This document shows positions 10,800 to 59,120 of a stretch of DNA of 64,000 nt, in pieces. A program made the translations under genes and the position numbers. Position 1 is the stretch's first letter; each line of letters starts with the position of its first letter. Source of the DNA: Eledone cirrhosa (taxonomy: Eukaryota); contig OZ024744.1 in the NCBI GenBank assembly GCA_964016885.1, forward strand, positions 41,168,001-41,232,000, read 5' to 3'. The notes beneath the pieces are model-generated. The model was given only the letters and a program-made list of their open reading frames with translations. It searched no databases and was not told the DNA's origin.

Positions 10800-15812
<5,013 letters not shown>

Positions 15813-15834
15813 AATAATAATAATAATAATAATG

Positions 15835-15866
<32 letters not shown>
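15813..15866. repeat. (AAT)n spacer between tandem Tx1 copies
   Basis: Directly visible. Confidence 0.95.
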
Positions 15867-15867
<1 letters not shown>

Positions 15868-16109
15868 TTTTCTTTATTAACCACAAGGGTTCACATAAAG
15901 TAGACATTAAGGACAGTACAGGACAATACAGGACGGTACAAATGGGCATTTCTGCGTGTAAAAAAACAGAGGTTGAAATAAAATAACAAAGAAAAATTCC
16001 CCAATAGGGGGGAGACTTCCAAGGGACATTTGTGGAGAAAGCCCATTAAAAGACCACAGTGGCCCTGACCACCAGGGCAAGTGCCCTCTCCCAGTTTTCC
16101 ACCTTTAAT

Positions 16110-19100
16110 TTACAGACACATACTCAGAGAAGGCCCATTCATTCGGGCCATACTTGCTTCTCTCACCCATCTTTCAACAAAATGCTGGGAAGAGAGCACT
16201 TCCCTCTCTACCCTGATTTTCCTTTTCAAATGAAATTTGAAAAAGTTAATCAGGGCATCACCGAAGAGGCAAGTGCTCGTCTTCAGCCCTTTCAAACGTG
16301 TCCACCATACTATCTCTTTCGCCATGGCCACCAGACAGATAAAAACTGCCTGCCCTTCCAGGCTAAAGGAAGGGGGCGGGGCAATCCTCACGATGGACTC
16401 AGCTGATAGCCGGATCCGTCCTACACGTGACAGCAGGTGTTCGACATAAACCCACAAGTCAGCAATGCTCGGACACTGGACGAGTGCGTGCAGGACGGTT
16501 TCGTCGCCCTGCGCGCATCTCGGACATGCCCGGCTGACGGCACCTCCATGCCTGTAGAGTTTATCCCGAACTGGCAAAGCTCCTCGGTAGCACTGCCAGG
16601 CCAGGGATTTCTGGAAGTTGTCCATAGGCCCTGGCCCGAAAGTCCTTCCGAAGAGATTGGCTAGTTGATTTTCGTCGACGCCTAGAGTTTCTCCAAGTAC
16701 GTCGTCGCTCTTCCCCTCCACTAATCCCCTATAGAACGCCAAGGTGGAGTTTCCACCGATCACATTGCCCGATTGGTCGAGGGCTGTGAGCGCCTGAAGA
16801 CATTCCAGTCTCCAAGCGCTCCCTCTCGGTCTTCGCTTGACCCAGGACTGCAGCTCCGTCAAGGAGACGAGCTGGGGAAAAACGCGTCTTGCAAACGGCG
16901 ACCACACCTGATCACCGTCGAGGAAGAGGTGGAGATGTCGTAGCCTGAGCGCGTGTCTGCGCATCATCAGCCACGGCATGCCCAGCCCTCCACGTAGCGG
17001 GTGTTGACAGCAGATGGACCGCCTGACCATCGGAGCGCGTCCCTTCCACAAGAAGCGAAAGAGCAAACGCTCCAGCGCAGTCAGGCGGGGCTTAGGACAA
17101 GATACGACGGTCAGGCGGTAGTAGATGACGGATGCGATGTACGCATTCGCCACCTCCGCTCGACCTTTCAGAGATAGCTTCCTCTCGGCCCATTTCTGTG
17201 TGAGAGAAGCCACCCTGCTCGTCACGTCGTCCCAGTTTTTGTCCGTCTGGAGGTCTGGACCGAACCAGACCCCTAGCAATTTAACCGGTCCGTCCGTCCA
17301 GCGCCCGACGACGCTGTTGGACGGCATGGACCTGCCTCTCCAGGTTCCGAGCTGCAGGCCCACTGACTTTTCCTGGTTGATCATTGCTCCTGTCACCGCT
17401 TCGTATTCTCTTAGTGTAGTGCCGATCGCCTCGATGTGTTTGGCGTTCGACACCACTACGGTGACATCGTCGGCATATGCTGACAGGGATCTTCCGCATC
17501 CTAGTTCGCGCGGGACCCCCCTCAACGTCTCCAGTTTGTGCAGTAATGGCTCGAGAGTCAATACGTACAATAGGGACGAGAGGGGACATCCTTGGCGGAC
17601 CGAGCGCATGATGTTGAACGGTTCCGAAAGGTGACCGTTCACTCTCACTACAGAGCAGATGTCGCTGTGCATGGCAGCGATCCAGCCTCTGAAGACGGGC
17701 CCAAAGCCAGCCGCCCTCAGGACTGCCGTTAGGTAACGATGGTCGACCCTATCGAAGGCTTTCGACTGATCTAAATTGATCAAAGACCCACCCGTGCCAG
17801 GTTCCCTAGCTACCCTCTCTACGATGTATCGCATGAGGTGGAGGTTGTCGTGGATGGATCTGTCGGGAATGGCGCATGTCTGTGCCTCTCTCACCAGACC
17901 ACCAACGACAAGCGCCAACCTCTTTGCTAGCACCTTGGCCAAAATCTTGAACTCTGTGTTTAGCAGAGTTATGGGCCTAAAATTATCTATGTTATCCCCC
18001 TTGTTCGGATCCTTTCTCAGCAACGCCACCGCTCCTCGGCTCACAGAGCTGGGAATTCTCCCGTTCTGTTGCCAGTAGCAGTAGACGTCCGCCAAGAGGC
18101 CTCCGAACAAGTTTGGCATTTGTACGTAAAGTTCATAGGGCAGACCATCCAAACCAGGCGATTTACCCCTTGTGCAACTAGTCATTGCATCCCGTACTTC
18201 AGCGGTTGTTATCGGCTTTTCGCAACACTCCGCCTCAGTGGCCGAAAGCCGCGGCAGTCCGTCGAGGTAGACACTAAAGTCCATCCCTCGATCCGGCCCG
18301 CCACTGCCCCCGAACAGTTGAGCGAAGTATCGCTGAAAAGCTTCACACATTTGCCCGGGATCGAGTAGCATGCGCCCGTCGTGGTCCACCAAAGACCGGA
18401 TCGTGGCTTTGTTGCCACGACGCGCCTCCGCCACTCGGGCCCATTGAACGGCTTTCGTCCCCTCGTGTCTGAGAGCACGCACCCTAGCTCTGACAACGCA
18501 GCCTTCGTGCTTTGCATTGAAGAATTGGTCAAGGGCCAATTTCGCCGCAAGTACGTCGGTCGCGATGCCTCTGCTAAACGCCTCATCTAATTTTCTAACT
18601 AATTCTCCCTCTGCTCTATTTTTCTCTATTGCTAAAGTCTTACTAAACCTAATGGACTCTATTCTAATTGCTCTTTTCAGAGCAAACCACCACTTGTTGT
18701 TGACGATGGCCCCCGTCAACGCCCGCTTAACTAGTTCGCTAATCCGGTCTCTGTAGGCCTTGCGCGCTGGTAAGGACGCGTTTAGCTTCCAGTAGCCGGG
18801 TCCTCGTCTATGAAGCATATCTAAGTCAAGCACACAGATCACGAATTTGTGGTCCGTGTAGCTGACTATCTTGAATTGTGGACAGCCTATGCTAGACCTA
18901 TCTATTTCCCTACAAAATACTCTATCTAGATATGATCTGGATGACCCTATGCGATTTGTCCAAGTCCACATTGGTACATTCGGGAAATCCATTCGGTACC
19001 TGTCAGACAGTTCAAAACGTCTGAGCAGGTTGGTGAGACTCTTGCACCCTCCTTCCCTATCCACTAATCCCACACAATCCCAGCGTGCATCTAAGATCCC

Positions 19101-19529
19101 GTTCCAGTCGCCCACTAACACTAAAGAGCGGGACGTTCCAAGAAAGGTCTCCAGACGCCGGAAGAAATCAGGCCGCCCTGCTCCTGTCGGGGCATAGACG
19201 GCCACTAACCTGAAAGCTTGCCCGTCTCCGCTGGTCACGTCCAGCACCACCAACTTACCTTCTGGGTCCAGGAATATGGCCCGTATGGCAAGATCCAAAC
19301 CTCTCCGAAAAAGCACAGCAACTCCTCCCCCCGATCCCGGACGGCTGGGAGATGCGTACACATCGTAGCCGCCGAAGATCGGTGCGAAAGCCTGTGCTTC
19401 GGAGATTCTGGTCTCGCTGATGGCCACTACATCTATGTTTAGTGACCTGAGGTCGTTGAGCAGGTGGCCCTGCTTCCATGACGACCCCAAGCCACGCGCA
19501 TTTATGCTGCCTATTCTGAGTGAGGTCAT
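16110..19529 (-). CDS. Tx1 ORF2: AP endonuclease + reverse transcriptase + C-terminal CCHC, intact 1139 aa
   Basis: SINARGL, ISETR, VYAP, GDWN, SYLDRVF, YTDHK; [38 protein letters not shown]; CPRC..ETVLHALVQC. Confidence 0.95.
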   Translation of the reverse strand: MTSLRIGSINARGLGSSWKQGHLLNDLRSLNIDVVAISETRISEAQAFAPIFGGYDVYASPSRPGSGGGVAVLFRRGLDLAIRAIFLDPEGKLVVLDVTSGDGQAFRLVAVYAPTGAGRPDFFRRLETFLGTSRSLVLVGDWNGILDARWDCVGLVDREGGCKSLTNLLRRFELSDRYRMDFPNVPMWTWTNRIGSSRSYLDRVFCREIDRSSIGCPQFKIVSYTDHKFVICVLDLDMLHRRGPGYWKLNASLPARKAYRDRISELVKRALTGAIVNNKWWFALKRAIRIESIRFSKTLAIEKNRAEGELVRKLDEAFSRGIATDVLAAKLALDQFFNAKHEGCVVRARVRALRHEGTKAVQWARVAEARRGNKATIRSLVDHDGRMLLDPGQMCEAFQRYFAQLFGGSGGPDRGMDFSVYLDGLPRLSATEAECCEKPITTAEVRDAMTSCTRGKSPGLDGLPYELYVQMPNLFGGLLADVYCYWQQNGRIPSSVSRGAVALLRKDPNKGDNIDNFRPITLLNTEFKILAKVLAKRLALVVGGLVREAQTCAIPDRSIHDNLHLMRYIVERVAREPGTGGSLINLDQSKAFDRVDHRYLTAVLRAAGFGPVFRGWIAAMHSDICSVVRVNGHLSEPFNIMRSVRQGCPLSSLLYVLTLEPLLHKLETLRGVPRELGCGRSLSAYADDVTVVVSNAKHIEAIGTTLREYEAVTGAMINQEKSVGLQLGTWRGRSMPSNSVVGRWTDGPVKLLGVWFGPDLQTDKNWDDVTSRVASLTQKWAERKLSLKGRAEVANAYIASVIYYRLTVVSCPKPRLTALERLLFRFLWKGRAPMVRRSICCQHPLRGGLGMPWLMMRRHALRLRHLHLFLDGDQVWSPFARRVFPQLVSLTELQSWVKRRPRGSAWRLECLQALTALDQSGNVIGGNSTLAFYRGLVEGKSDDVLGETLGVDENQLANLFGRTFGPGPMDNFQKSLAWQCYRGALPVRDKLYRHGGAVSRACPRCAQGDETVLHALVQCPSIADLWVYVEHLLSRVGRIRLSAESIVRIAPPPSFSLEGQAVFICLVAMAKEIVWWTRLKGLKTSTCLFGDALINFFKFHLKRKIRVEREVLSSQHFVERWVREASMARMNGPSLSMCL

Positions 19530-19563
19530 GTTGAAAAGGAGTGGAAAAGATGGGAAAGACCAC

Positions 19564-21428
19564 TTACCTTACTTCTCGTAGGAGAAGGACGGCTTTTCCA
19601 TCCTTTTCACTGCTTGTGGCCTCCTCAGGAAGGATGTCCTTATAAATTTTCCTGGAGAGTGCTTGTCGGATGTCTTTGGGGAATTTTTGTTTTAGTGTCA
19701 TGTACGTTTTCTGTGTGATGCGAGTGATTTTTATGTGTGGAGGTGGTGTGAATTTTGGGGTTGTTGTGTAGTCTTTTTCTGTGATGCTGGTGTTGTGTTG
19801 GATGTAGTGTAATAATTGCTTGTTGTTCAAATTTAATGCTGTGTAGTGTGTATCGTTTTGGTTGTTTTGTTTTGTTTGCGTTTGTTGTGGGTTTGTTTCT
19901 GTTTCGCATTTTGGTGATTTTTTGTGGTGTAGGTGATGGTGGTGTTGGAGTTAATGATGGTGATGGTGTTGGTGTTTGGGTTGATGGGGTTGGTGATGCT
20001 GGTGTGGATGGTGGCATATCTGTCCTAACTTTTTTGTTTCTTAGTTTATTTGTTTCCCTCTGTATTTTGTTTTTGGAGGGGGAAGGAAGAGAATTTTTTC
20101 TTTTTTGGTTTCTCTTTTTTTTCCGGATATCGTTTCCCACTCCTCGTCGTCACAATGGTGTTGTTGGTTTTGCTGGTGGTGGTAGTGGTGTTGGTTTTGC
20201 TACTGTTGCTGGGGTTGTTGCTGTTATAGTTGCTTCTGTTGTTGCTGCTACAGTTGTTGCTGGCATCTCTGCTACTGGTGGTGTTGATGGTTGTGTCACT
20301 GGGGTGGGTAGGAGAGGTGGCCTCAACCTTTTAACCTGAGGGCAGAAAGCCCTTAGGTGGGTTCCTTCACCACAAACGACACACCTAGGTCTTCTGCCCT
20401 CGACAATTACCGTGAGGTGGCTGCCGTCAGTGAGGTCTATTACCTCTGGGATCTCCTCAATGCTTTTTTGGTCCGCTTGGATCAGGAGCTCCATCCCAGA
20501 TCCGGACCAGTTTTCCTGCTTTTCTTTTGCTATTGTTATTATTTTCGTGTTGGCCTCGATGCCGGCGATGACAGCCGCTATTAGCCAGGGAATTTCGATG
20601 GCCGGTGGAACGTGGGTCACCCTGATCTTTACGAGTCTCTGGCCACAATAGCTTGGGACGAGTGTGAAGTCGTCACTTTTTAATGGGGCCATGGAGTGTT
20701 CTCTAGCCTCCTCTGGTGTTTCAAAGAACACATCCACGGTTCCATACTTTTGCCCACGTCTGATGTGGGTTTTTCTTTCCCACACATGTCCCAAAGCTTT
20801 TTGGATTTGGGACTCGGATGCCCGTTCCACTCGGCGCGATTTTACATTTATTGTTCTATACGACACGGTGCATAGGCGCCGATGCTCCATTTTATTAGGT
20901 GGGGGGGGGGGGAGGCTGACCCTGTACCCATCTTTCTTTACCATTTGTTTGGCATTTTCTAAATCTTCTTGAGTTACCGTGAACGCTTCGAATTGTTTTG
21001 CTACGATGGCGAAACTGAGGGTCGGTTTTATAATGTCATTGTTGTTGTTGTTGCTATCGTTAATATTAATTTTATTTTCAGTTGTGGTGGTGGTGACGTC
21101 AGTCGTCTTTGGTGGGGAAGAGTCCATTTTGCTTGATTTCATTTCGACGTCACGAGTTAATTTATTTTTTTCTTCTTTTGTTTCTGTTGTCGCGGTGGTG
21201 GTGGTGGTGGTGGTTGTCGCGGTGGTGGTGGTGGTGGAGGGTTTAACACCTGCAGTCATTGGTAATGGCGGGAAATGAATGTCTGCCTGAGACAAATTTA
21301 AAATATTGCTACTGCTTATATTTTTTTTGTTTGGCAAACGTAGTAACATTTACAATGGTGGTGTCGGTGTGAGGTGTTATTTTGTGAGGAAGGCTTTCAG
21401 CTGCTTCGTGCAGAGGGGAATTAGCCAT
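19564..21428 (-). pseudogene. Tx1 ORF1 (gag-like, zinc knuckle), frameshifted
   Basis: ATGGCTAAT start at 21428; main frame 20150-21349 has CVVCGEGTHLRAFC (CX2CX4HX4C); continues through frameshifts to ...LLLREVR* just before ORF2. Confidence 0.8.
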
Positions 21429-21637
21429 TTTTTTTCAAAGAAATTTTTGGATAATAATAAAAGTTAAAATTTTGGGCACAAGGCCCCAATCTTTTTGGGT
21501 GTCCTTTTCGGAAAACAATGTATGTGTGCTTATAAACAGTTTACAATAAAATTTTCCATAGATGGCAATTTTTAAACAAACGGAAATAACAAACCTTTGC
21601 GGAGCTCACGATAATACGATTTCCTACGTAGGTCGCC

Positions 21638-21755
<118 letters not shown>

Positions 21756-24700
21756 GAGAACGGAGGAACCACCCGAAGCAGACAATGATCTGAATACTGA
21801 GATAAATAATACCTGGAACAGAGATACGGCCACTGAGGAGATGAATGCTGACGGGCTAGGACAAGATTCGGTTGACATCCTAAATTTAGTGGTAGATAAG
21901 TTGAACAATGATAGTGGGAGACCTATGAACCTAAGATTTGTAGACAGGAAAAAGTTAAAAGAAACAACAGCTAAGGTAAACAAAGTCATCCCATACCTTG
22001 AGGCGAGGAGTCTTCACCAGTGCAACAATATCCTCAAATCAACAGCAAATACGGTGAGGAAACTACTTGGTATAAAAGCGAGAGGAAACAACAGACAAGA
22101 AAGAGCAGAGCCGTGGTGGAAGAAGCGACTGAGTGGGCAAATCGGGGAAATGAGAAATGACATAGGAAAGCTTGAGTCACTACTGAATGGGACACTAAAA
22201 AACATAGGCACTAAAAATAGACTGGAAATAAAATACAAAACTAGGAGTAAAAAGCTAAATATTATCATAGAGGAATTGAAGCAACGCATTGTAGCAAAGA
22301 GTGCCAAAATCAGGCGATACGAGAACAGAGTCAGTCAGTATAAACAGAACCGCATGTTCGACAACAACCAGAAGATGCTGTTTGGACAGCTTGAGGGGAA
22401 AGAAAGAGGCAACGACTTGATCCCTGGGGCGGAACAAGCTAAAACATTCTGGAGAGGAATATGGGAGCAGGATGTTAGACACAATGCCCAGGCAGGGTGG
22501 ATTGAGACAGTACAGAGGGAGATCGGTGAGCAGGCACAACAACAGACTGATTTGAGTATCACAGTTGAAACTCTTAAGGGGCAAGCCAAAAAACTAACTA
22601 ACTGGAAATCACCAGGCCCAGATGGTGTGCAGGGGTATTGGATTAAACATTTAACATCCCTCCACCCGAAGCTGACGGCCATGTTCAATGACTGCTTGGT
22701 GTCGGGTGAGGTGCCAGAGTGGTTGACAAAAGGTACCACAGTTCTGATAATGAAAGACCGAATCAAGGGTAATGATGTTACCAACTATAGACCTATCACA
22801 TGTCTGCCCGTAATGTGGAAACGGTTGACGAGCATTGTGTCTGAGGAAATCTACCATCACCTCCACACAAACAACTTGTTACCGGACGAACAGAAAGGAT
22901 GCCGAAAGAAGTCACGTGGTACAAAGGACCAGTTGCTTGTTGATAAGATGGTAATGGGGAATTGCAGGAGGAGACACACTGATCTTGCCATGGGATGGAT
23001 AGACTACAGAAAGGCATTTGACATGGTGCCTCATTCCTGGATCACCAAAAGCCTGGAGATCTTCAGGGTGGCAGATAACATCAGACAGTTGCTGGGCAGG
23101 AGTATGGGGTCCTGGGAGACAGAGTTGACATCAACTGGAGTATCCTTGGGAAGCGTGAAGATCAAGAGAGGTATCTTCCAGGGAGATAGCCTGTCCCCTC
23201 TGTTGTTTGTCCTTGCCCTGATGCCCTTGACCATTATGCTGCGAAAAGTGAGAGCAGGATACAAGTTGGGAAGGGGAGAGCTTACCATCAATCACCTCCT
23301 CTTCATGGACGATCTTAAGCTCTTCGGGAAAAGTGAGAAGGAGTTGGATGTGCTTGTTGACACTGTCCGTATTTTCAGCAGTGATATATGTATGCAGTTT
23401 GGTATTGGTAAATGTGGAGTCATTGTGATGAAGAGGGGTAGGTTGAGCAGAAGTAACGGGATCCAGATACCAACAGGTGAGATGATAAAGGAAATTGACT
23501 CTGAGGAAGGATACAAGTATTTGGGCGTTCTGGAGGCTGATGGCATAAAGAACAAAAAAATGAAGGAATTGTTAAGAACTGAATACATTCGGAGAGTAAG
23601 GAGCGTATTGAAGTCACATCTGAACAGCAGAAATGCCATAAGCGCAGTAAATTCCCGAGCTGTGTCTATTATTAGGTACAGTGCGGGAATTCTGAGATGG
23701 AATGTTGCTGAACAGAAAGAAATGGATAGGAAGACTAGGAAGCTATTGACTATCTACAACATGTTCCACAAGAGGAGTGATGTCGATAGACTCTACCTAA
23801 GGAGATCTGAGGGTGGAAGAGGTCTTATCAGCATAGAGGACTGTGTTCAGATGGAGAAAAACAACCTATACAAATACGTGACCTATAGTAAGGAGCCAAT
23901 GCTCAGAACTGTACTGAAGGAGGGGACAGTAGGCCAGGGGATGTCCAAGGAGGAAATAACATCAAGGAGGAAGAGCAGCCTTAAGGGAAAATCCCTTCAT
24001 AGTACCTTCTTTGAGAAAACTGAATTTAGAGATCCACAGACATGGAACTGGTTGAGAAGAGGAGACCTCAAAAAGGCTACAGAAGGAATGGTAATGGCTG
24101 CGCAGGAGCAGGCCCTCAAAACGAAGTGGTTGAAGCACCATATCTACAAGGAGGAGGCTAGCCCACTGTGCAGGATCTGTGGAGAGAGAGAGGAGACTGT
24201 GGCTCACATTGTGTCCGAGTGTAAACACCTAGCCCAGACCCACTATAAGGGCTGGAGACACGATGTGATGGGCAGGGTGATCCACTGGCACCTGTGCAAA
24301 GTAAACAATCTACCACATTCTGAGAAATGGTATGAGCATAGGCCAGAGGCGGTGATGGAGAACAGTCAGGTGAAGGTGCTGTGGGATTTTAGGATACAGA
24401 CGGACAAAAAACTGGAACACAATAGACCTGACCTGGTGGTTGTGGACAAAGAAAAAAGATCGTGCCTGATTGTGGATGTGGCCTGCCCGTTCGACACGAG
24501 AGTGCAAGAGAAGGAGAGGGAGAAAATTAACCGATACCAGGACCTAAAGTGGGAAGTGAAAAGGATTTGGAACTGCCATGAAGTCAAAGTGATCCCGATT
24601 GTCATAGGCGCACTGGGGACTATCTCCAAAGGTTTCCAGGGATGGTTAAAGAAAATCGGCCCCTTCACGCTTTTTGGAACGCTTCAAAAGGCATGCTTGC

Positions 24701-24820
24701 TTGGAACAGCAAGAACCCTCCGATACGTCCTGAATATCTGAGGCTGCAGGTAGTGGCTTGATATTCAATCCAACGGATTTTCCAGTTAACCAACATCAAT
24801 GACTGAGATTCAAGGAATAG
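21756..24820 (+). mobile_element. R4/Dong-type RLE non-LTR retrotransposon, 5'-truncated, (AAT)n tail
   Basis: Starts mid-ORF (matches 26338 onward of the next copy); short 3' UTR followed by (AAT)n. Confidence 0.9.
21841..24741 (+). CDS. RT + CCHC + restriction-like endonuclease (uninterrupted, N-terminally truncated)
   Basis: KSPGPDG, YRPITCL, IDYRKAFD, GIFQGDSLSPLLF, LLFMDDLK, YKYLG, GGRGL, CRICGEREETVAHIVSEC, RHD, RPDLVVVD..IVDVACP..K..RY. Confidence 0.92.
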   Translation: MNADGLGQDSVDILNLVVDKLNNDSGRPMNLRFVDRKKLKETTAKVNKVIPYLEARSLHQCNNILKSTANTVRKLLGIKARGNNRQERAEPWWKKRLSGQIGEMRNDIGKLESLLNGTLKNIGTKNRLEIKYKTRSKKLNIIIEELKQRIVAKSAKIRRYENRVSQYKQNRMFDNNQKMLFGQLEGKERGNDLIPGAEQAKTFWRGIWEQDVRHNAQAGWIETVQREIGEQAQQQTDLSITVETLKGQAKKLTNWKSPGPDGVQGYWIKHLTSLHPKLTAMFNDCLVSGEVPEWLTKGTTVLIMKDRIKGNDVTNYRPITCLPVMWKRLTSIVSEEIYHHLHTNNLLPDEQKGCRKKSRGTKDQLLVDKMVMGNCRRRHTDLAMGWIDYRKAFDMVPHSWITKSLEIFRVADNIRQLLGRSMGSWETELTSTGVSLGSVKIKRGIFQGDSLSPLLFVLALMPLTIMLRKVRAGYKLGRGELTINHLLFMDDLKLFGKSEKELDVLVDTVRIFSSDICMQFGIGKCGVIVMKRGRLSRSNGIQIPTGEMIKEIDSEEGYKYLGVLEADGIKNKKMKELLRTEYIRRVRSVLKSHLNSRNAISAVNSRAVSIIRYSAGILRWNVAEQKEMDRKTRKLLTIYNMFHKRSDVDRLYLRRSEGGRGLISIEDCVQMEKNNLYKYVTYSKEPMLRTVLKEGTVGQGMSKEEITSRRKSSLKGKSLHSTFFEKTEFRDPQTWNWLRRGDLKKATEGMVMAAQEQALKTKWLKHHIYKEEASPLCRICGEREETVAHIVSECKHLAQTHYKGWRHDVMGRVIHWHLCKVNNLPHSEKWYEHRPEAVMENSQVKVLWDFRIQTDKKLEHNRPDLVVVDKEKRSCLIVDVACPFDTRVQEKEREKINRYQDLKWEVKRIWNCHEVKVIPIVIGALGTISKGFQGWLKKIGPFTLFGTLQKACLLGTARTLRYVLNI

Positions 24821-25749
24821 CAATAACAATAATAATAATAATAATAATAATAAAATAATAAAAAAAGGGAAGAAGACGCACGAGGTGACGGAGGTCATGA
24901 AATCGCTCCCGTAAGTTTTGAATTTTTAACATATTTAAACCATTTGTGAAATAACAACTCTTAGCACAAATGCTACGTAAAGCACCCGGCTTGAGCCCCA
25001 AAAAAATTCGGACCCAAAATATATTGTTATAAGGCTCAAATATTCAAATATTCAACTTTGTATTGTACACTGTATATCCAAAAAAAAATGGCTATAAATG
25101 GAAGAAGAACCCCTCCCCTCCTCTCCTCTGGCTACACTATATAGGACAGCTAAACTCACCAACACCAGAAACTAGATACACCACCCACCCCATCATCTGT
25201 GTACACTAAACACAACAGCCAGATAACGACACATTTTCACCTTCACCGCCACCGCTCACTACGGCCATCATTACCACCACTATCCCATCACCGCCGCCAC
25301 CACCCCTTGACTCCGCTACAGCACCATCACTACAGTAATACGGTCACATCACCGCCACCACTGCCTCGGTATCGACATCACCACCACCACTGTCTCAGTA
25401 TCGCTAACGCCGCCAGTCTCCCACTTCCCTGCTGGCTGCTACTTCCACATTATAGAATTCCTACTACTAACAAAGAGGAAGGCATCAAAATATATAGATA
25501 GACCCAAAAGAAAAAAGAAAAAAAAAACAACAAAACCAAAGCAGCACAGCAACAACAGCAAAAAACGAGAAAAACAAACAGAGAAAAACAAAAACAAAAA
25601 AAAGAAACCCCAAAAACGTAAAGAAAATAAGATTGAAGAGAGAAGCAGGCGGACGGACAGAGAAGAGGGGGGAAAAGTAAAACTTAAAAAACTCAAACTA
25701 AGTCAGACATTCGAACACTACATTACAATGAAACTTATGCTTATTCATT

Positions 25750-28700
25750 TCTGGGGCTCTTTCTGCCTGTGTGTTTGTTTGTTTATGTGTGTTCGTATAC
25801 AGCGTGGCGATAATGCCACACAAGGGCCAAGTGGGATGGCGGATCCACAGATGGCTATGTAAACATACATTCGCCAATCCTCGATAAGAGTGTTTAAATA
25901 TCGAACATAAACAGTTCGAATAACGGTGAAATGGAGACTAGAACGTCATGTGACAGACTCTCACCCAACAGGTGCCCCCTGGCTCAGCAGCAGGAACCTG
26001 ACTGTCAACCAAATACTGCTGATGTTGGAGGAAGGAGAAGAAGGAAAGGGGCCAGAACCAACTGGACGAAAGAATTGAATAGAACTGTTATGCAATGCTA
26101 CCTGAAAAGTAACCCCAAGGAGAGGGGCTACAGGAGACGGATGCATAACATCTGGAACGAGATTGGTTTATTTAAATTAGATGAACAAAAATTGGCCGGG
26201 CAGGCTCGGGTAATAAGAACTAATGGGTGGATAAGCGAGCTGGAACTGGAGGAACTGAGCAGAGAGAATGGCTTGGAGATGGCGGGTGTAGTATGCCAGA
26301 CAAGCGAGCCGGTGGGAAATGAAGGTGAGGAGGTCCTGAGAACGGAGGAACCACCCGAAGCAGACAATGATCTGAGTACTGAGATAAATAATACCTGGAA
26401 CAGAGATACGGCCACTGAGGAGATGAATGCTGACGGGCTAGGACAAGATTCGGTTGACATCCTAAATTTAGTGGTAGATGAATTGAACAATGATAGTGGG
26501 AGACCTATGAACCTAAGATTTGTAGACAGGAAAAAGTTAAAAGAAACAACAGCTAAGGTAAACAAAGTCATCCCATACCTTGAGGCGAGGAGCCTTCACC
26601 AGTGCAACAATATCCTCAGAGCAACAGCAAATACGGTGAGGAAACTACTTGGTATAAAAGCGAGAGAAAACAACAGACAGGAAAGAGCAGAGCCGTGGTG
26701 GAAGAAGCGACTGAGTGGGCAAATCGGGGAAATGAGAAATGACATAGGAAAGCTTGAGTCACTACTGAATGGGACACTAAAAAACATAGGCACTAAAAAT
26801 AGACTGGAAATAAAATACAAAACTAGGAGTAAAAAGCTAAATATTATCATAGAGGAATTGAAGCAACGCATTGTAGCAAAGAGTGCCAAAATCAGGCGAT
26901 ACGAGAACAGAGTCAGTCAGTATAAACAGAACCGCATGTTCGACAACAACCAGAAGATGCTGTTTGGACAGCTTGAGGGCAAAGAAAGAGGCAACGACTT
27001 GATCCCTGGGGCGGAGCAAACTAAAACATTATGGAGAGGAATATGGGAGCAGGATGTTAGACACAATGCCCAGGCAGGGTGGATTGAGACAGTACAGAGG
27101 GAGATCGGTGAGCAGGCACAGCAACAGACTGATTTGAGTATCACAGTTGAAACTCTTAAGGGGCAAGCCAAAAAACTAACCAACTGGAAATCACCAGGCC
27201 CAGATGGTGTGCAGGGGTGTTGGATTAAACATCTAACATCCCTCCACCCGAAGCTGACGGCCATGTTCAATGAATGCTTGGTGTCGGGTGAGGTGCCAGA
27301 GTGGTTGACAAAAGGTACCACAGTTCTGATAATGAAAGACCGAATCAAGGGTAATGATGCTACCAACTATAGACCTATCACATGTCTGCCCGTAATGTGG
27401 AAACTGTTGACGAGCATTGTGTCTGAGGAAATCTACCATCACCTCCACACAAACAACTTGTTACCGGACGAACAGAAAGGATGCCGAAAGAAGTCACGTG
27501 GTACAAAGGACCAGTTGCTTATTGATAAGATGGTAATGGGGAATTGCAGGAGGAGACACACTGATCTTGCCATGGGATGGATAGACTACAGAAAGGCATT
27601 TGACATGGTGCCTCATTCCTGGATCACCAAAAGCCTGGAGATCTTCAGGGTGGCGGATAACATCAGACAGTTGCTAGGCAGGAGTATGGGGTCCTGGGAG
27701 ACAGAGTTGACATCAACTGGAGTATCCTTGGGAAGCGTGAAGATCAAGAGAGGTATCTTCCAGGGAGATAGCCTGTCCCCTCTGTTGTTTGTCCTTGCCC
27801 TGATGCCCTTGACCATTATACTGCGAAAAGTGAGAGCTGGATACAAGTTGGGAAGGGGAGAGCTTACCATCAATCACCTCCTCTTCATGGACGATCTTAA
27901 GCTCTTCGGGAAAAGTGAGAAGGAGTTGGATGTGCTTGTTGACACTGTCCGTATTTTCAGCAGTGATATATGTATGCAGTTTGGTATTGGTAAATGTGGA
28001 GTCATTGTGATGAAGAGGGGTAGGTTGAGCAGAAGTAACGGGATCCAGATACCAACAGGTGAGATGATAAAGGAAATTGACTCTGAGGAAGGATACAAGT
28101 ATTTGGGCGTTCTGGAGGCTGATGGCATAAAGAACAAAAAAATGAAGGAATTGTTAAGAACTGAATACATTCGGAGAGTAAGGAGCGTATTGAAGTCACA
28201 TCTGAACAGCAGAAATGCCATAGGCGCAGTAAATTCCCGAGCTGTGTCTATTATTAGGTACAGTGCGGGAATTCTGAGATGGAATGTTGCTGAACAGAAA
28301 GAAATGGATAGGAAGACTAGGAAGCTATTGACTATCTACAACATGTTCCACAAGAGGAGTGATGTCGATAGACTCTACCTAAGGAAATCTGAGGGTGGAA
28401 GAGGTCTTATCAGCATAGAGGACTGTGTTCAGATGGAGAAAAACAACCTATACAAATACGTGACCTATAGTATGGAGCCAATGCTCAGAGCTGTACTGAA
28501 GGAGGGGACAGTAGGCTAGGGGATGTCCAGGGAGGAAATAACATCAAGGAGGAAGAGCAGCCTTAAGGGAAAACCCCTTCATAGTACCTTCTTTGAGAAA
28601 ACTGAATTTAGAGATCCACAGACATGGAACTGGTTGAGAAGAGGAGACCTCAAAAAGTCTACAGAAGGAATGCTAATGGCTGCGCAGGAGCAGGCCCTCA

Positions 28701-29400
28701 AAACGAAGTGGTTGAAGCACCATATCTACAAGTAGGAGGCCAGCCCACTGTGCAGGATCTGTGGAGAGAGAGAGGAGACTGTGGCTCACATTGTGTCCGA
28801 GTGTAAACACCTAGCCCAGACCCACTATAAGGGCTGGAGACACGATGTGATGGGCAGGGTGATCCACTGGCACCTGTGCAAAGTAAACAATCTACCACAC
28901 TCTGAGAAATGGTATGAGCATAGGCCAGAGGCGGTGATGGAGAACAGTCAGGTGAAGGTGCTGTGGGATTTTAGGATACAGACGGACAAAAAACTGGAAC
29001 ACAATAGACCTGACCTGGTGGTTGTGGACAAAGAAAAAAGATCGTGCCTGATTGTGGATGTGGCCTGCCCGTTCGACACGAGAGTGCAAGAGAAGGAGAG
29101 GGAGAAAATTAACCGATACCAGGACCTAAAGTGGGAGGTGAAAAGGATTTGGAACTGCCATGAAGTCAAAGTGATCCCGATTGTCATAGGCGCACTGGGG
29201 ACTATCTCCTAAAGTTTCCAGGGATGGTTAAAGAAAATCGGCCCCTTCACGCTTTTTGGAACGCTTCAAAAGGCATGCTTGCTTGGAACAGCAAGAACCC
29301 TCCGATACGTCCTGAATATCTGAGGCTGCAGGTAGTGGCTTGATATTCAATCCAACGGACTTTCCAGTTAACCAACATCAATGACTGAGATTCAAGGAAT
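25750..29400 (+). mobile_element. Near full-length R4/Dong-type element; ORF 25931-29323 with three in-frame stops
   Basis: N-terminal WTKELNRTVMQCYLKSNPKERGYRRRMHNIW..EQKLAGQARVI typical of the R4 clade; near-identical to the upstream copy; stops at ~28517, 28733 and 29210; (AAT)n tail. The 5' boundary is uncertain. Confidence 0.88.
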
Positions 29401-29522
29401 AACAACAATAATAATAATAATAATAATAATTATAATAATAATAATAATAATTGTTTCTACGTTAGGCACAAGGCCAGCAAGTACCCAGTGTATTACTGGT
29501 ACTTTATAATAATAATAATAAT

Positions 29523-30395
29523 GCTTTCTTTATTAACCACAAGGGTTTACACAAAGTAGACATTAAGGACAGTACAGGACAATACGTGACGGTACAAATG
29601 GGCATTTCTGCATGTAAAAAAACAAAAAAAACAGAAGATGTAACAAAAAAGAAACAATGAAAAATTCCCCAATAGGGGGGAGACTTCCGACGGCCATCGT
29701 GGAGAAAGCCCATTAAAAAAGCCACGGTGACCCTGACCACCAGAGCAAGTGCCCTCTCCCAGTTTTCCACCTTCAATTTGCAGGCACATACTCAGAGTAG
29801 GGCCATTCACTTGGCCATGCCTGCCTCGCTCACCCATCTTTCAACAAAATGCTGGGAAGATAGCATTTCCCTCTCTACCCTGATTTTCCTTTTCAAATGA
29901 AATTTTAAAAAGTTAATCAGGGCATTACCAAAGAAGTAAGTGCTTGTCTTCAGCCCTTGGAAACGCGCCCACCACACTATCTCTTTCGCCATGGCCAGGT
30001 AAAAACTGCCTGCCCTTCTCGGCTAAAGGAAGACTGCGGGGCAATCCTCACGATGGACTCAGCTGATAGCTGGATCCGTCCTACACGCGACAGGTGTTCG
30101 ACATAAACCCACAAGGCAGCAATGTTTGGACACTGAACGAGTGCATGCAGGATGGTTTCATCGCCCTGCGCGCATCTCAGGCACACCCGACTGACGGCAC
30201 TTCCATGCCTGTAGAGTTTATTCAGACCTGGCAAACTCCTTGGTAGCACTGCCAAGCCAGGGATTCCTGGAAGTTGTCCATAGGCCCCGGCTCAAAAGTT
30301 CTCCCGAAGAGATTGGCTAGTTGATTTTCGTCGACACCCAGAGTCTTCCCAAGTACGTCGTCGCGCTTTCCCTCTACTAATCCTCTATAGAAAGA
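29523..30395 (-). mobile_element. 5'-truncated Tx1 copy flanked by (AAT)n
   Basis: Homologous to 15867-16740. Confidence 0.9.
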
Positions 30396-30412
30396 CAATA
30401 ATAATAATAATA

Positions 30413-30591
30413 ATTGTTTCTACTTCTGGCACAAGTCCAGCAATTATTGCAGTGTATTACTGGTACTTTATTTTATCGACCCCGTAAGGACGAAAGGCAA
30501 AGTTAACCTCGGCGGGATATGAACTCAGACCATAAAGGACCTTAACTCTTTGCTGTAAAGCATGGCGTCCGACCCTCTACCGATACTGCCA
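30413..30591 (-). mobile_element. SINE family B in (AAT)n
   Basis: TTGGCAGTATCGGTAGAG head, B box and AGAAACAATTATT tail; further fragments at 29451-29507 and 30733-31035. Confidence 0.8.
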
Positions 30592-31101
30592 AAATAATAA
30601 TAATGTTTTTCAAACATTACAATGAACCACGCACCCCACCACCACCACCACCGCCACTGCCACTACTACCACCGAAAAATGAAAATGATAATGGTTTGTT
30701 GATGTTGATGGTGGTGATGCTGATGATAATGGTTGTTTCTTCTTTTAGAACAAGGCCAGCGATTTCCACAGAGAATTGTTGTTGCTCTGTCTTGTCGACC
30801 CCGTGAAGTGAGGAGTGGGGTTGACCTTGGCAGGATTTGTGCTCAGACCATAAATGGCAGATGCTGAAGATCATAATAATTGTATCACTTTTGGCACAGA
30901 GCCAGCGATTGACCTCTGCAGGGTTTGTGCTCAGACCATAAATGGTAGATGCTGATGATAATGGTGGTTGTTTCTGTTTAGGGCACAGTGCCAGCAATTG
31001 CTCCAGTATATTACTCTGTTTTATTGACTCCGTAAGATAATAATAATGACTTATAAACAGGATTCACATTAGGAAAATATTAAAAACAGCACAAAAAAAT
31101 A

Positions 31102-54517: not shown

Positions 54518-54717
54518 NNNNNNNNNNNNNNNNNNNNNNNNNNNNNNNNNNNNNNNNNNNNNNNNNNNNNNNNNNNNNNNNNNNNNNNNNNNNNNNNNNN
54601 NNNNNNNNNNNNNNNNNNNNNNNNNNNNNNNNNNNNNNNNNNNNNNNNNNNNNNNNNNNNNNNNNNNNNNNNNNNNNNNNNNNNNNNNNNNNNNNNNNNN
54701 NNNNNNNNNNNNNNNNN
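54518..54717. other. Assembly gap (200 N)
   Basis: Run of N. Confidence 1.
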
Positions 54718-58077: not shown

Positions 58078-58230
58078 CCACACATATATACATATATATA
58101 AATAATAATAGGGAGTATAATCGAAGCTGCAACTGTGAATAGTAGTTTCAAAATCGATTTTCTGAGGCTGCCAATAAACACTCATTGAGACGATATCAAT
58201 AATTCGATAAATTATTGCTCAGAGTAATAA

Positions 58231-58412
58231 TTGTTTCTACTTTTGCCACAAGGCCAGCAATTACCCAGTGAATTACTGGTACCTTATTTTATGGACCCCA
58301 TAAGGATGAAAGGCAAAGTTAACCCCGGCGGGATTTGAACTCAGAATGGCAAGGGCCGTAACTCTATGCGTCAAAGCATGGCGTCCGACCCTCTACCGAT
58401 ACTGCCAATCCA
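58231..58412 (-). mobile_element. SINE family B
   Basis: Homologous to 33593-33776. Confidence 0.85.
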
Positions 58413-59120
58413 CAATATTAGTTAGATATGGGACACAGTGAATTGCGACCAGAGGCTTGCTGCCACCTTAATATGACAACAACAAAAATACAAACAGGTT
58501 AAAAATGCACCTGGACCAGAACGATAGATATTATATAAACATCTTCGATTAGTTTCTGGGAATCCATAAGCTACACTCCAACTTGCATAACATGCAAGTC
58601 AGTAATGTATCTTCAGATGGAAAAAGGATATTTCTCTTTCGACAGGCATTTCGTTCCGTTATCCACTGAGCATGGCTTATTAACTCCACTGGACTATAGC
58701 AATAACAAGAAAAGAGGAAGTTCATATGTGGGCATTGGCGGGTACAAAAGTGTGAACAAAGGAATTCATTCACAGCCTCGAAATAAGCTCTCAACTAGGT
58801 TTTCAAACAAGCAATAAAAAATCAATTAATCAATTAATCAACTAATTAATTAATTATAAAGGCTAAGAGAAAATAATAATAATAATAGTGAGTATAATCG
58901 AAGTTGCAGAGGAAAAAGATATATGTATATATACCCGCATGACCGGCTACTGCCCACAACAGGACAACCAGTCCAACCCATTCTAACGTCGAAGAAGGGA
59001 CGTAAAACGGTGATCATGATATAGAGAGAAAGAGCATACATCATAGAAGAAACAGTATATTGTATATTTACAAAATACATATCTATAGAAGAATATGTAC
59101 ATAGGTGGAATCATAAGAGA

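Follow-up and report, generated by a model that had tools for sequence, protein, structure and literature searches.

Structure of the element

The stretch of Eledone cirrhosa DNA analysed here (64,000 nt; hereafter the window, in whose positions all coordinates are given) carries on its minus strand a full-length long interspersed nuclear element (LINE) of the L1/Tx1 type, enclosed on both sides by tracts of the trinucleotide ATT. Together with its relatives in the 3.0-Gb genome, over which all exact-pattern counts were taken, it probably represents a young, high-copy LINE of the apurinic/apyrimidinic endonuclease (APE) type, likely of the Tx1 clade, which resides in (ATT)n in fixed phase and polarity and likely enters pre-existing tracts through target-primed reverse transcription. 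The parts of the element, with its open reading frames (ORFs), untranslated regions (UTRs) and reverse transcriptase (RT), are as follows.

15867-21637, minus strand: full-length L1/Tx1-type LINE of subfamily A (head GGCGAC), 5771 bp; 56 head-A copies elsewhere are colinear with it
21638-21755: (AAT)39 target tract preceding the head; its far side adjoins a Dong/R4-like element
21429-21637, minus strand: 5' UTR, 209 nt, with the ORF1 start inferred from copies with an open ORF1; a CTTGT-loop hairpin at about 21473-21487
19564-21428, minus strand: ORF1, broken by several indels in comparison with an open-ORF1 copy; a CX2CX4HX4C knuckle is visible
16110-19529, minus strand: ORF2, uninterrupted, 1139 aa; APE endonuclease at residues 22-210, RT at 511-754 (YADD at 685) and a C-terminal Cys/His motif at 1002-1019
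15867-16109, minus strand: 3' UTR, ending in an AACC-CTTGT-GGTT hairpin, AATAAA and GAAAAC, without poly(A)
15813-15866: (AAT)18 tract, which is both the 3' tract of this copy and the upstream tract of a second, older copy

The initial annotation, which was made from the letters of the window, had described a full-length element with an uninterrupted ORF2 of 1139 aa, and this description was borne out: Exo_endo_phos, RVT_1 and zf-RVT of Pfam all lie above their cut-offs in ORF2, and the catalytic-type motifs of the APE and RT domains (ISETR, GDWN, YLDR, TDH and YADD) are in place. In ORF1 no Pfam family was found above cut-off; this frame is open and 652-665 aa long in other copies of subfamily A. 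Owing to its several ORF1 indels the window copy is full-length, yet not autonomous, as it cannot move on its own proteins.

The 5' start of the element, GGCGACCTACG, abuts (AAT)39, and its 3' terminus, ...AATAAAGAAAAC, abuts (AAT)18. The junctions read ...TTATT/GGCGAC at the 5' end and GAAAAC/ATTATT at the 3' end, and because of this phase (ATT)n is a better name for the target than the (TTA)n used in the initial annotation. The CTTGT-loop hairpin of the 3' end (15879-15891, minus strand) recurs in the 5' UTR (21473-21487, minus strand) with different paired stems, and also in the tail of an abundant repeat resembling a short interspersed nuclear element (SINE), for example at 30397-30592 and 58225-58420. 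The stems of the 3' hairpin are AACC/GGTT in the window element; older relatives, like the SINE-like repeat, have GCC/GGC. The hexamer GGTAAG at 19562-19567 (minus strand), which resembles a splice donor, overlaps the end of ORF1; of the 72 copies scored, 49 of type A and 18 of type B contain it.

Flanking sequences in the genome

Of the 2,261 occurrences of the exact 24-base head of subfamily A in the genome, 2,077 (92%) stand directly after a perfect TTATTATTATT. A base other than T precedes the head in 12 of the 2,261, and all 12 have (ATT)n one or two bases off. A second subfamily, B, which begins with a different head, gives the same picture, 2,291 of its 2,369 exact heads (97%) following directly upon ATTATTATT. 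By comparison, of window positions taken at random, 0.5% have a 9-nt ATT-type run in the roughly 25 nt upstream of them.

The exact 23-base 3' end was counted 9,314 times, and 120 copies, all on contig C1, were sampled by it: 40 are exact matches to the last 244 bases of the window element, and the other 80 come from the first 100 listed 3'-end pattern matches, minus 10 already sampled and the last 10. The head is reached in 77 of the 120 (56 of type A and 21 of type B); ATT lies upstream in every one of the 77, with the TTATT/head junction in 73. At the other end, ATT without poly(A) directly follows the element in 117 of the 120 copies. Among the 43 copies without an aligned head four were set aside, three because a head does appear just before a deletion or rearrangement inside the copy and one (L061) because it abuts type-B 5' sequence. 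The remaining 39 headless copies, in which two pairs look like duplicates of one insertion, have upstream ATT in 15 cases (38%), which is about a 75-fold enrichment over the 0.5% background. PMC4494074, in the text available, calls an element target-specific when more than 20% of its flanks are of one type; the shares here are 92% of A heads, 97% of B heads and 38% of headless copies. An assembly artefact was considered and rejected, as thousands of dispersed copies at 93-99% identity are present.

The polarity is equally constant. Within 150 nt of the 120 copies, neighbours of the same family point in the same direction in 43 of 43 cases, whereas Dong-like neighbours point in the opposite direction in 58 of 59. 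Sequence of the element's own family lies within 150 nt upstream in 23 of the 120 copies. At 29 head loci outside the window, 17 heads follow the tail of the same family or a relative, and 12 have other flanks, which are still ATT. The resulting arrays mix A and B heads of different ages, as in the window, where a young copy stands beside one of 74% identity; this mixture fits serial insertion rather than concatemers.

Presence of the tract before insertion

Copies L077 and L151 lie between two flanks of one host repeat, which has 1,188 exact matches in the genome, so that occupied and empty sites can be compared. In 25 of the 30 host-repeat copies fetched, the same two flanks are joined, with no element between them, by ATT-rich sequence 3-51 nt long (median 18 nt, often broken by GTT); of the rest, L151 itself is one, another has a Dong-like end, and the remaining three did not count as empty in the script's scoring. 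Since the element-free copies carry the tract, it existed before insertion at the L077 and L151 sites. The preference for such tracts, which the initial annotation had proposed from the window, is thus in agreement both with the flanks across the genome and with the empty sites. At the occupied sites the tracts total about 70-80 nt, and they exceed most of the empty ones in length and purity. Outside the tracts, target-site duplications show no excess (none in 73 of 77 copies, against 72.1 expected from shuffled pairs), and duplications inside the ATT tract are not readable. The host repeat itself (L190-L219; L077, L151) has a duplicated unit and ATT tracts and resembles the 3' portion of a different LINE, which we take to be CR1/L2-like.

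Subfamilies, age and activity

Subfamily B, which is about as abundant as A (examples are L072, L131, L132, L140 and L143), differs from A in its 5' UTR and in its ORF1, which is 689-698 aa long and in its core 53% identical to that of A. Its ORF2 is 96.5-97% identical to that of the window element, and the CX2CX4HX4C knuckle is visible in the ORF1 of both subfamilies. This pattern suggests the exchange of a 5' module on a near-identical ORF2. Because two unlike heads share the same flank and phase, the determinant of the target would be ORF2 or the shared 3' end.

Among 42 long A copies the median identity to the ORF2 and 3' UTR of the window element is 98.7%. ORF2 is open in 20 of the 77 head-bearing copies, and both frames are open in five; judging from these open frames and the high identity, the family is young and probably still able to move. 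The initial annotation had called for a retrotransposition assay with a repaired ORF1, and such a repair proves unnecessary, since the five natural copies have both frames intact. The genome holds at least 4,630 exact heads of A and B, which would amount to an estimated total of about 27 Mb if most heads belong to full-length copies.

Contigs of other organisms (B, C, D and G; runs X4, X5, X6 and X9) span the greater part of the element with a likeness of 85-95%, with 30 of 30 bins covered in B, 30 of 30 in C, 28 of 30 in G and 28 of 30 in D (X6). In raw reads of X21, also from organism D and read to about 1%, 2 of 30 bins are covered. On the strength of these contigs, close relatives of the element exist in several species. 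Metagenome contigs gave 14 pattern matches, none of which was confirmed as a related locus.

Probable placement in the Tx1 clade

The architecture of the L1/Tx1 group, with an N-terminal APE, an RT and a C-terminal Cys/His motif, is present in ORF2. Its best solved relative is human LINE-1 ORF2p (PDB 9k6g and others; E 1e-52, residues 5-854), which has the same domain order, and the bit scores of 182 for human L1 ORF2p and 78 for R2 place the RT nearer to L1 than to the R2 type. A poly(A) tail and a weak site preference set human L1 apart from the window element, as does the CCHC knuckle in the ORF1 of the latter. A separate ORF1 with a CCHC zinc knuckle, seen here as CX2CX4HX4C, is a feature of the Tx1 clade.

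Fish proteins named TX1 match ORF2 with 273-329 bits and those of TX1 type with 273-338 bits; the RT identity to the TX1-named ones is only 35-38%. BAC82609.1 of Danio scores 312 bits; presumably it is one of the Tx1 families of Kojima and Fujiwara 2004, although a literature search by accession found no paper. As BAC82609.1 itself scores 280 bits against human L1, and an algal protein reaches 362 bits with ORF2 as the query, scores alone do not settle membership in Tx1. The closest named protein among the matches listed is from Argonauta hians (72%), which makes an octopod host likely; no protein identifiable as L1 proper or as Xenopus Tx1L stands among the 120 matches listed per homologue search. 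The ESM Atlas returned only unnamed RT/APE clusters, without taxa.

A tree of the RT region of 35 sequences, rooted on a Dong-like ORF and built with no L1 or curated Tx1 reference, joins the window element with Argonauta and P0001 (support 100); unnamed proteins that are 46-53% identical join next (100). The lineage is sister to the group of TX1-named fish and turtle proteins, not nested within it, at a support of only 73, deep support in this tree being weak. A FastTree run on 109 sequences places the window element beside other unnamed proteins. The earlier assignment of the RT to the L1/Tx1 group is upheld, in that ORF2 is nearer to the TX1-named fish proteins than to human L1; judged on this comparison of proteins, the element likely belongs to the Tx1 clade. 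An identity as RTE, CR1 or R4 was rejected.

Comparison with known systems

Two groups of elements resemble the one in the window, each in a different respect. Dong is an R4-clade element with a single ORF, which carries an RT and a C-terminal restriction-like endonuclease and no APE. The window element, with its APE domain and two ORFs, differs from the Dong/R4 plan, yet it uses the same microsatellite, and Dong/R4-like elements occupy the very same tracts in this genome. Their 3' end reads (AAT)n, that is, they stand on the opposite strand to the window element (58/59). The accessible text of PMC3812793 gives a TAA target for Dong only (in B. mori, A. gambiae and B. glabrata) and groups Dong with the APE types; Dong-R4 elements have been recorded in octopus, as the available portions of PMC13282606 and PMC9115989 state.

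Kibi and Koshi, which are Tx1 elements of teleosts, and the Tx1 families of crocodilians share with the window element the plan of a two-ORF APE LINE of the L1/Tx1 group lying in a microsatellite (PMC4494074 and PMC3812793, as far as their text was available). They differ in the target, which is (TC)n, (TTC)n, (TTCC)n or (TTTC)n in these families, TC, TTC, TTCC and TTTC, all of pyrimidines, being the Tx1 microsatellite targets named in the same portion of PMC4494074. The target here is (ATT)n, and the element is therefore neither Kibi nor Koshi, which use (TC)n or (TTC)n. Octopus vulgaris has 80 L1-Tx1 families, 13 of them recently active, according to the available text of PMC13282606; this set may include a relative of the window family. 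The word 'target' has 0 occurrences in the main text and supplement of PMC13282606 in the form available, and the accessible portions of PMC9115989, PMC8967140, PMC10294476, PMC3706591 and PMC2684134 are silent on an ATT target. The available literature yielded no Tx1 family with an ATT/TAA target, although Repbase, Dfam, and Fig. 3 and the supplement of PMC4494074 could still hold one.

Proposed mechanism and alternatives

From the observed flanks, phase, polarity, empty sites and domain content we infer a sequence of biochemical steps. Most likely, ORF2p would bind its own RNA near the small 3' hairpin, and its endonuclease would nick the strand that reads (AAT)n. This RNA likely carries (AUU)n beyond the CUUGU-loop hairpin at its end; the (AUU)n would anneal to the strand with the nick and start the copying, and in this way a poly(A) would not be added. 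At the 5' end, the almost constant ...TTATT/head junction would result from AUU/ATT homology with which the full-length RNA likely starts or which it encounters; the fixed phase would come either from a defined second cut or from this homology, and truncated cDNAs would join less cleanly. Every insertion leaves ATT on both sides and would create new targets, which would explain the mixed arrays of A, B, Dong/R4-like elements and SINE-like repeats.

It is possible, though less likely than not, that targeting is brought about mainly by RNA-DNA pairing: a relaxed endonuclease would nick AT-rich DNA widely, only nicks in (AAT)n would pair with the (AUU)n end of the RNA, and the flank pattern would be identical with an enzyme that is not sequence-specific. 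That the element ends in ATT without poly(A) speaks for such pairing, and PMC6007223, in the text available, argues that microsatellite-like 3' ends of the RNA shape site choice in RTE elements. The hairpin loop of the endonuclease, which affects nicking (PMC1950540, as far as accessible), aligns gap-free to the loop of human L1 and with gaps to that of Tx1L, which could be read in the same direction but decides nothing between enzyme and pairing. On the other hand, target choice is held to be set mainly by the endonuclease in the available part of PMC4494074, and a fixed 5' phase for two unlike heads is in keeping with a defined second-strand cut, though homology at the 5' end might lead to it as well.

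It is very unlikely that the element makes the ATT tracts itself, as a 5' leader and a 3' tail, and inserts without preference. Such an origin would find support in upstream ATT being present in 100% of head-bearing copies and only 38% of headless ones, and in the occupied tracts being purer and some 70-80 nt long, most empty ones being shorter; however, the empty host-repeat copies already have a tract at the exact place, there are no duplications outside the tracts, headless copies are still enriched about 75-fold, and Dong-like and SINE-like ends crowd the same tracts. Least probable is that the head-to-tail arrays are concatemers formed by template jumping or read-through, in which the upstream ATT would be what the preceding copy ends in; the arrangement expected is seen at 17 of 29 head loci and in 23 of 120 sampled copies. 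As a general account this is refuted by solitary copies, 12 of the 29 loci have other flanks yet ATT, and the arrays mix heads and ages, though some arrays may still have arisen in this way.

Several observations weigh against insertion of the element into pre-existing (ATT)n tracts as the explanation of its flanks. Headless copies lack ATT directly upstream in 24 of 39 cases, and among the 16 with 95% identity or more it is missing in 12 and present in 4, whereas a plain nick-and-duplicate model would predict upstream ATT more often; five of the ATT-less copies lie against a Dong-like 5' end, and the neighbours of others are (TTC)n, pieces of their own family or unique DNA. For the same reason only part of the initial argument from the truncated copy at 29525-30398 stands: its (AAT)5 and (AAT)6 flanks are real, but truncated copies in general have upstream ATT in only 15 of 39 cases. 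Both heads of the window, at 21637 and 15812, do directly abut a TTA-type repeat, as had been pointed out, but the tract upstream of the second is the 3' tract of the first copy, and the head at 15812 is therefore not independent evidence of targeting. Many flanks are likewise the tails of ATT-ended elements (17/29), where the order of insertion is unreadable. Empty sites were compared for a single host repeat, with two occupied sites, and the sampled copies come from contig C1 alone, 40 of the 120 having been picked as exact matches to the 3' end of the window element.

The five truncated copies that meet truncated Dong-like 5' ends (L050, L057, L070, L120 and L185) stand head-to-head with them, with no ATT between, which suggests either a deletion of the target at insertion, by one element or the other, or later damage. 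Three further truncated copies (L137, L139 and L160) directly follow a sequence other than ATT, namely (TTC)n in two and two CCCTAA-like units in one; (TTC)n is thus directly upstream in only 2 of the 39 headless copies.

Significance of the (ATT)n target

Repbase and Dfam aside, the well-supported (ATT)n target is new for a clade whose targets are known to change, but it is not a new principle. A broader picture can be drawn only tentatively. The family might be an undescribed, probably active cephalopod lineage of Tx1, whose (ATT)n specificity arose independently of Kibi and Koshi and converged on the target of Dong from the opposite strand. AUU homology at both ends of the RNA would serve precise, mostly full-length insertion, and the 5' UTR/ORF1 module would be swapped while ORF2 is kept. 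Together with Dong and the hairpin-sharing SINE, such a lineage could drive a self-feeding growth of (ATT)n and of nested arrays that make up some 1% of the genome.

Here two unrelated enzymes, that of an APE element and that of a Dong/R4-like one, use one target in opposite polarity, with thousands of young copies, which makes for a natural comparison of site choice. The system makes it testable how much of APE-type targeting is due to the endonuclease and how much to RNA-DNA pairing. With its thousands of exact heads, and with natural copies in which both frames are open, the family also offers a candidate active element where LINE activity is debated.

Other copies and neighbours in the window

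Around the full-length copy, the window contains two further copies of the family and two elements on the opposite strand.

13587-15812, minus strand: older head-bearing copy, 74% identity, ORF1 broken; breaks off at the ORF2 start
29525-30398, minus strand: 5'-truncated copy, 87% identity, between (AAT)5 and (AAT)6
21756-24861, plus strand: 5'-truncated Dong/R4-like element with an RT and no APE match, (AAT)n tracts on both sides and opposite polarity
25931-29451, plus strand: second Dong/R4-like copy, 98.5% identical to the first, from the ORF start to an (AAT)18 tail, with an RT and no APE match

The Dong/R4 name of the plus-strand neighbours is our assumption, taken from the architecture and the TAA target and not from a comparison with a reference. 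The (AAT)6 beside the truncated copy is the tail of the short repeat at 30397-30592, likely a SINE. Downstream of the older copy, at 10927-13583 (minus strand), lie shuffled, non-colinear pieces of ORF2 of the same family at 78-90% identity. Farther along, 35400-61800 contains long (AT)n tracts and many decayed RT-like fragments, presumably RTE-like, and a run of 200 N occupies 54518-54717.

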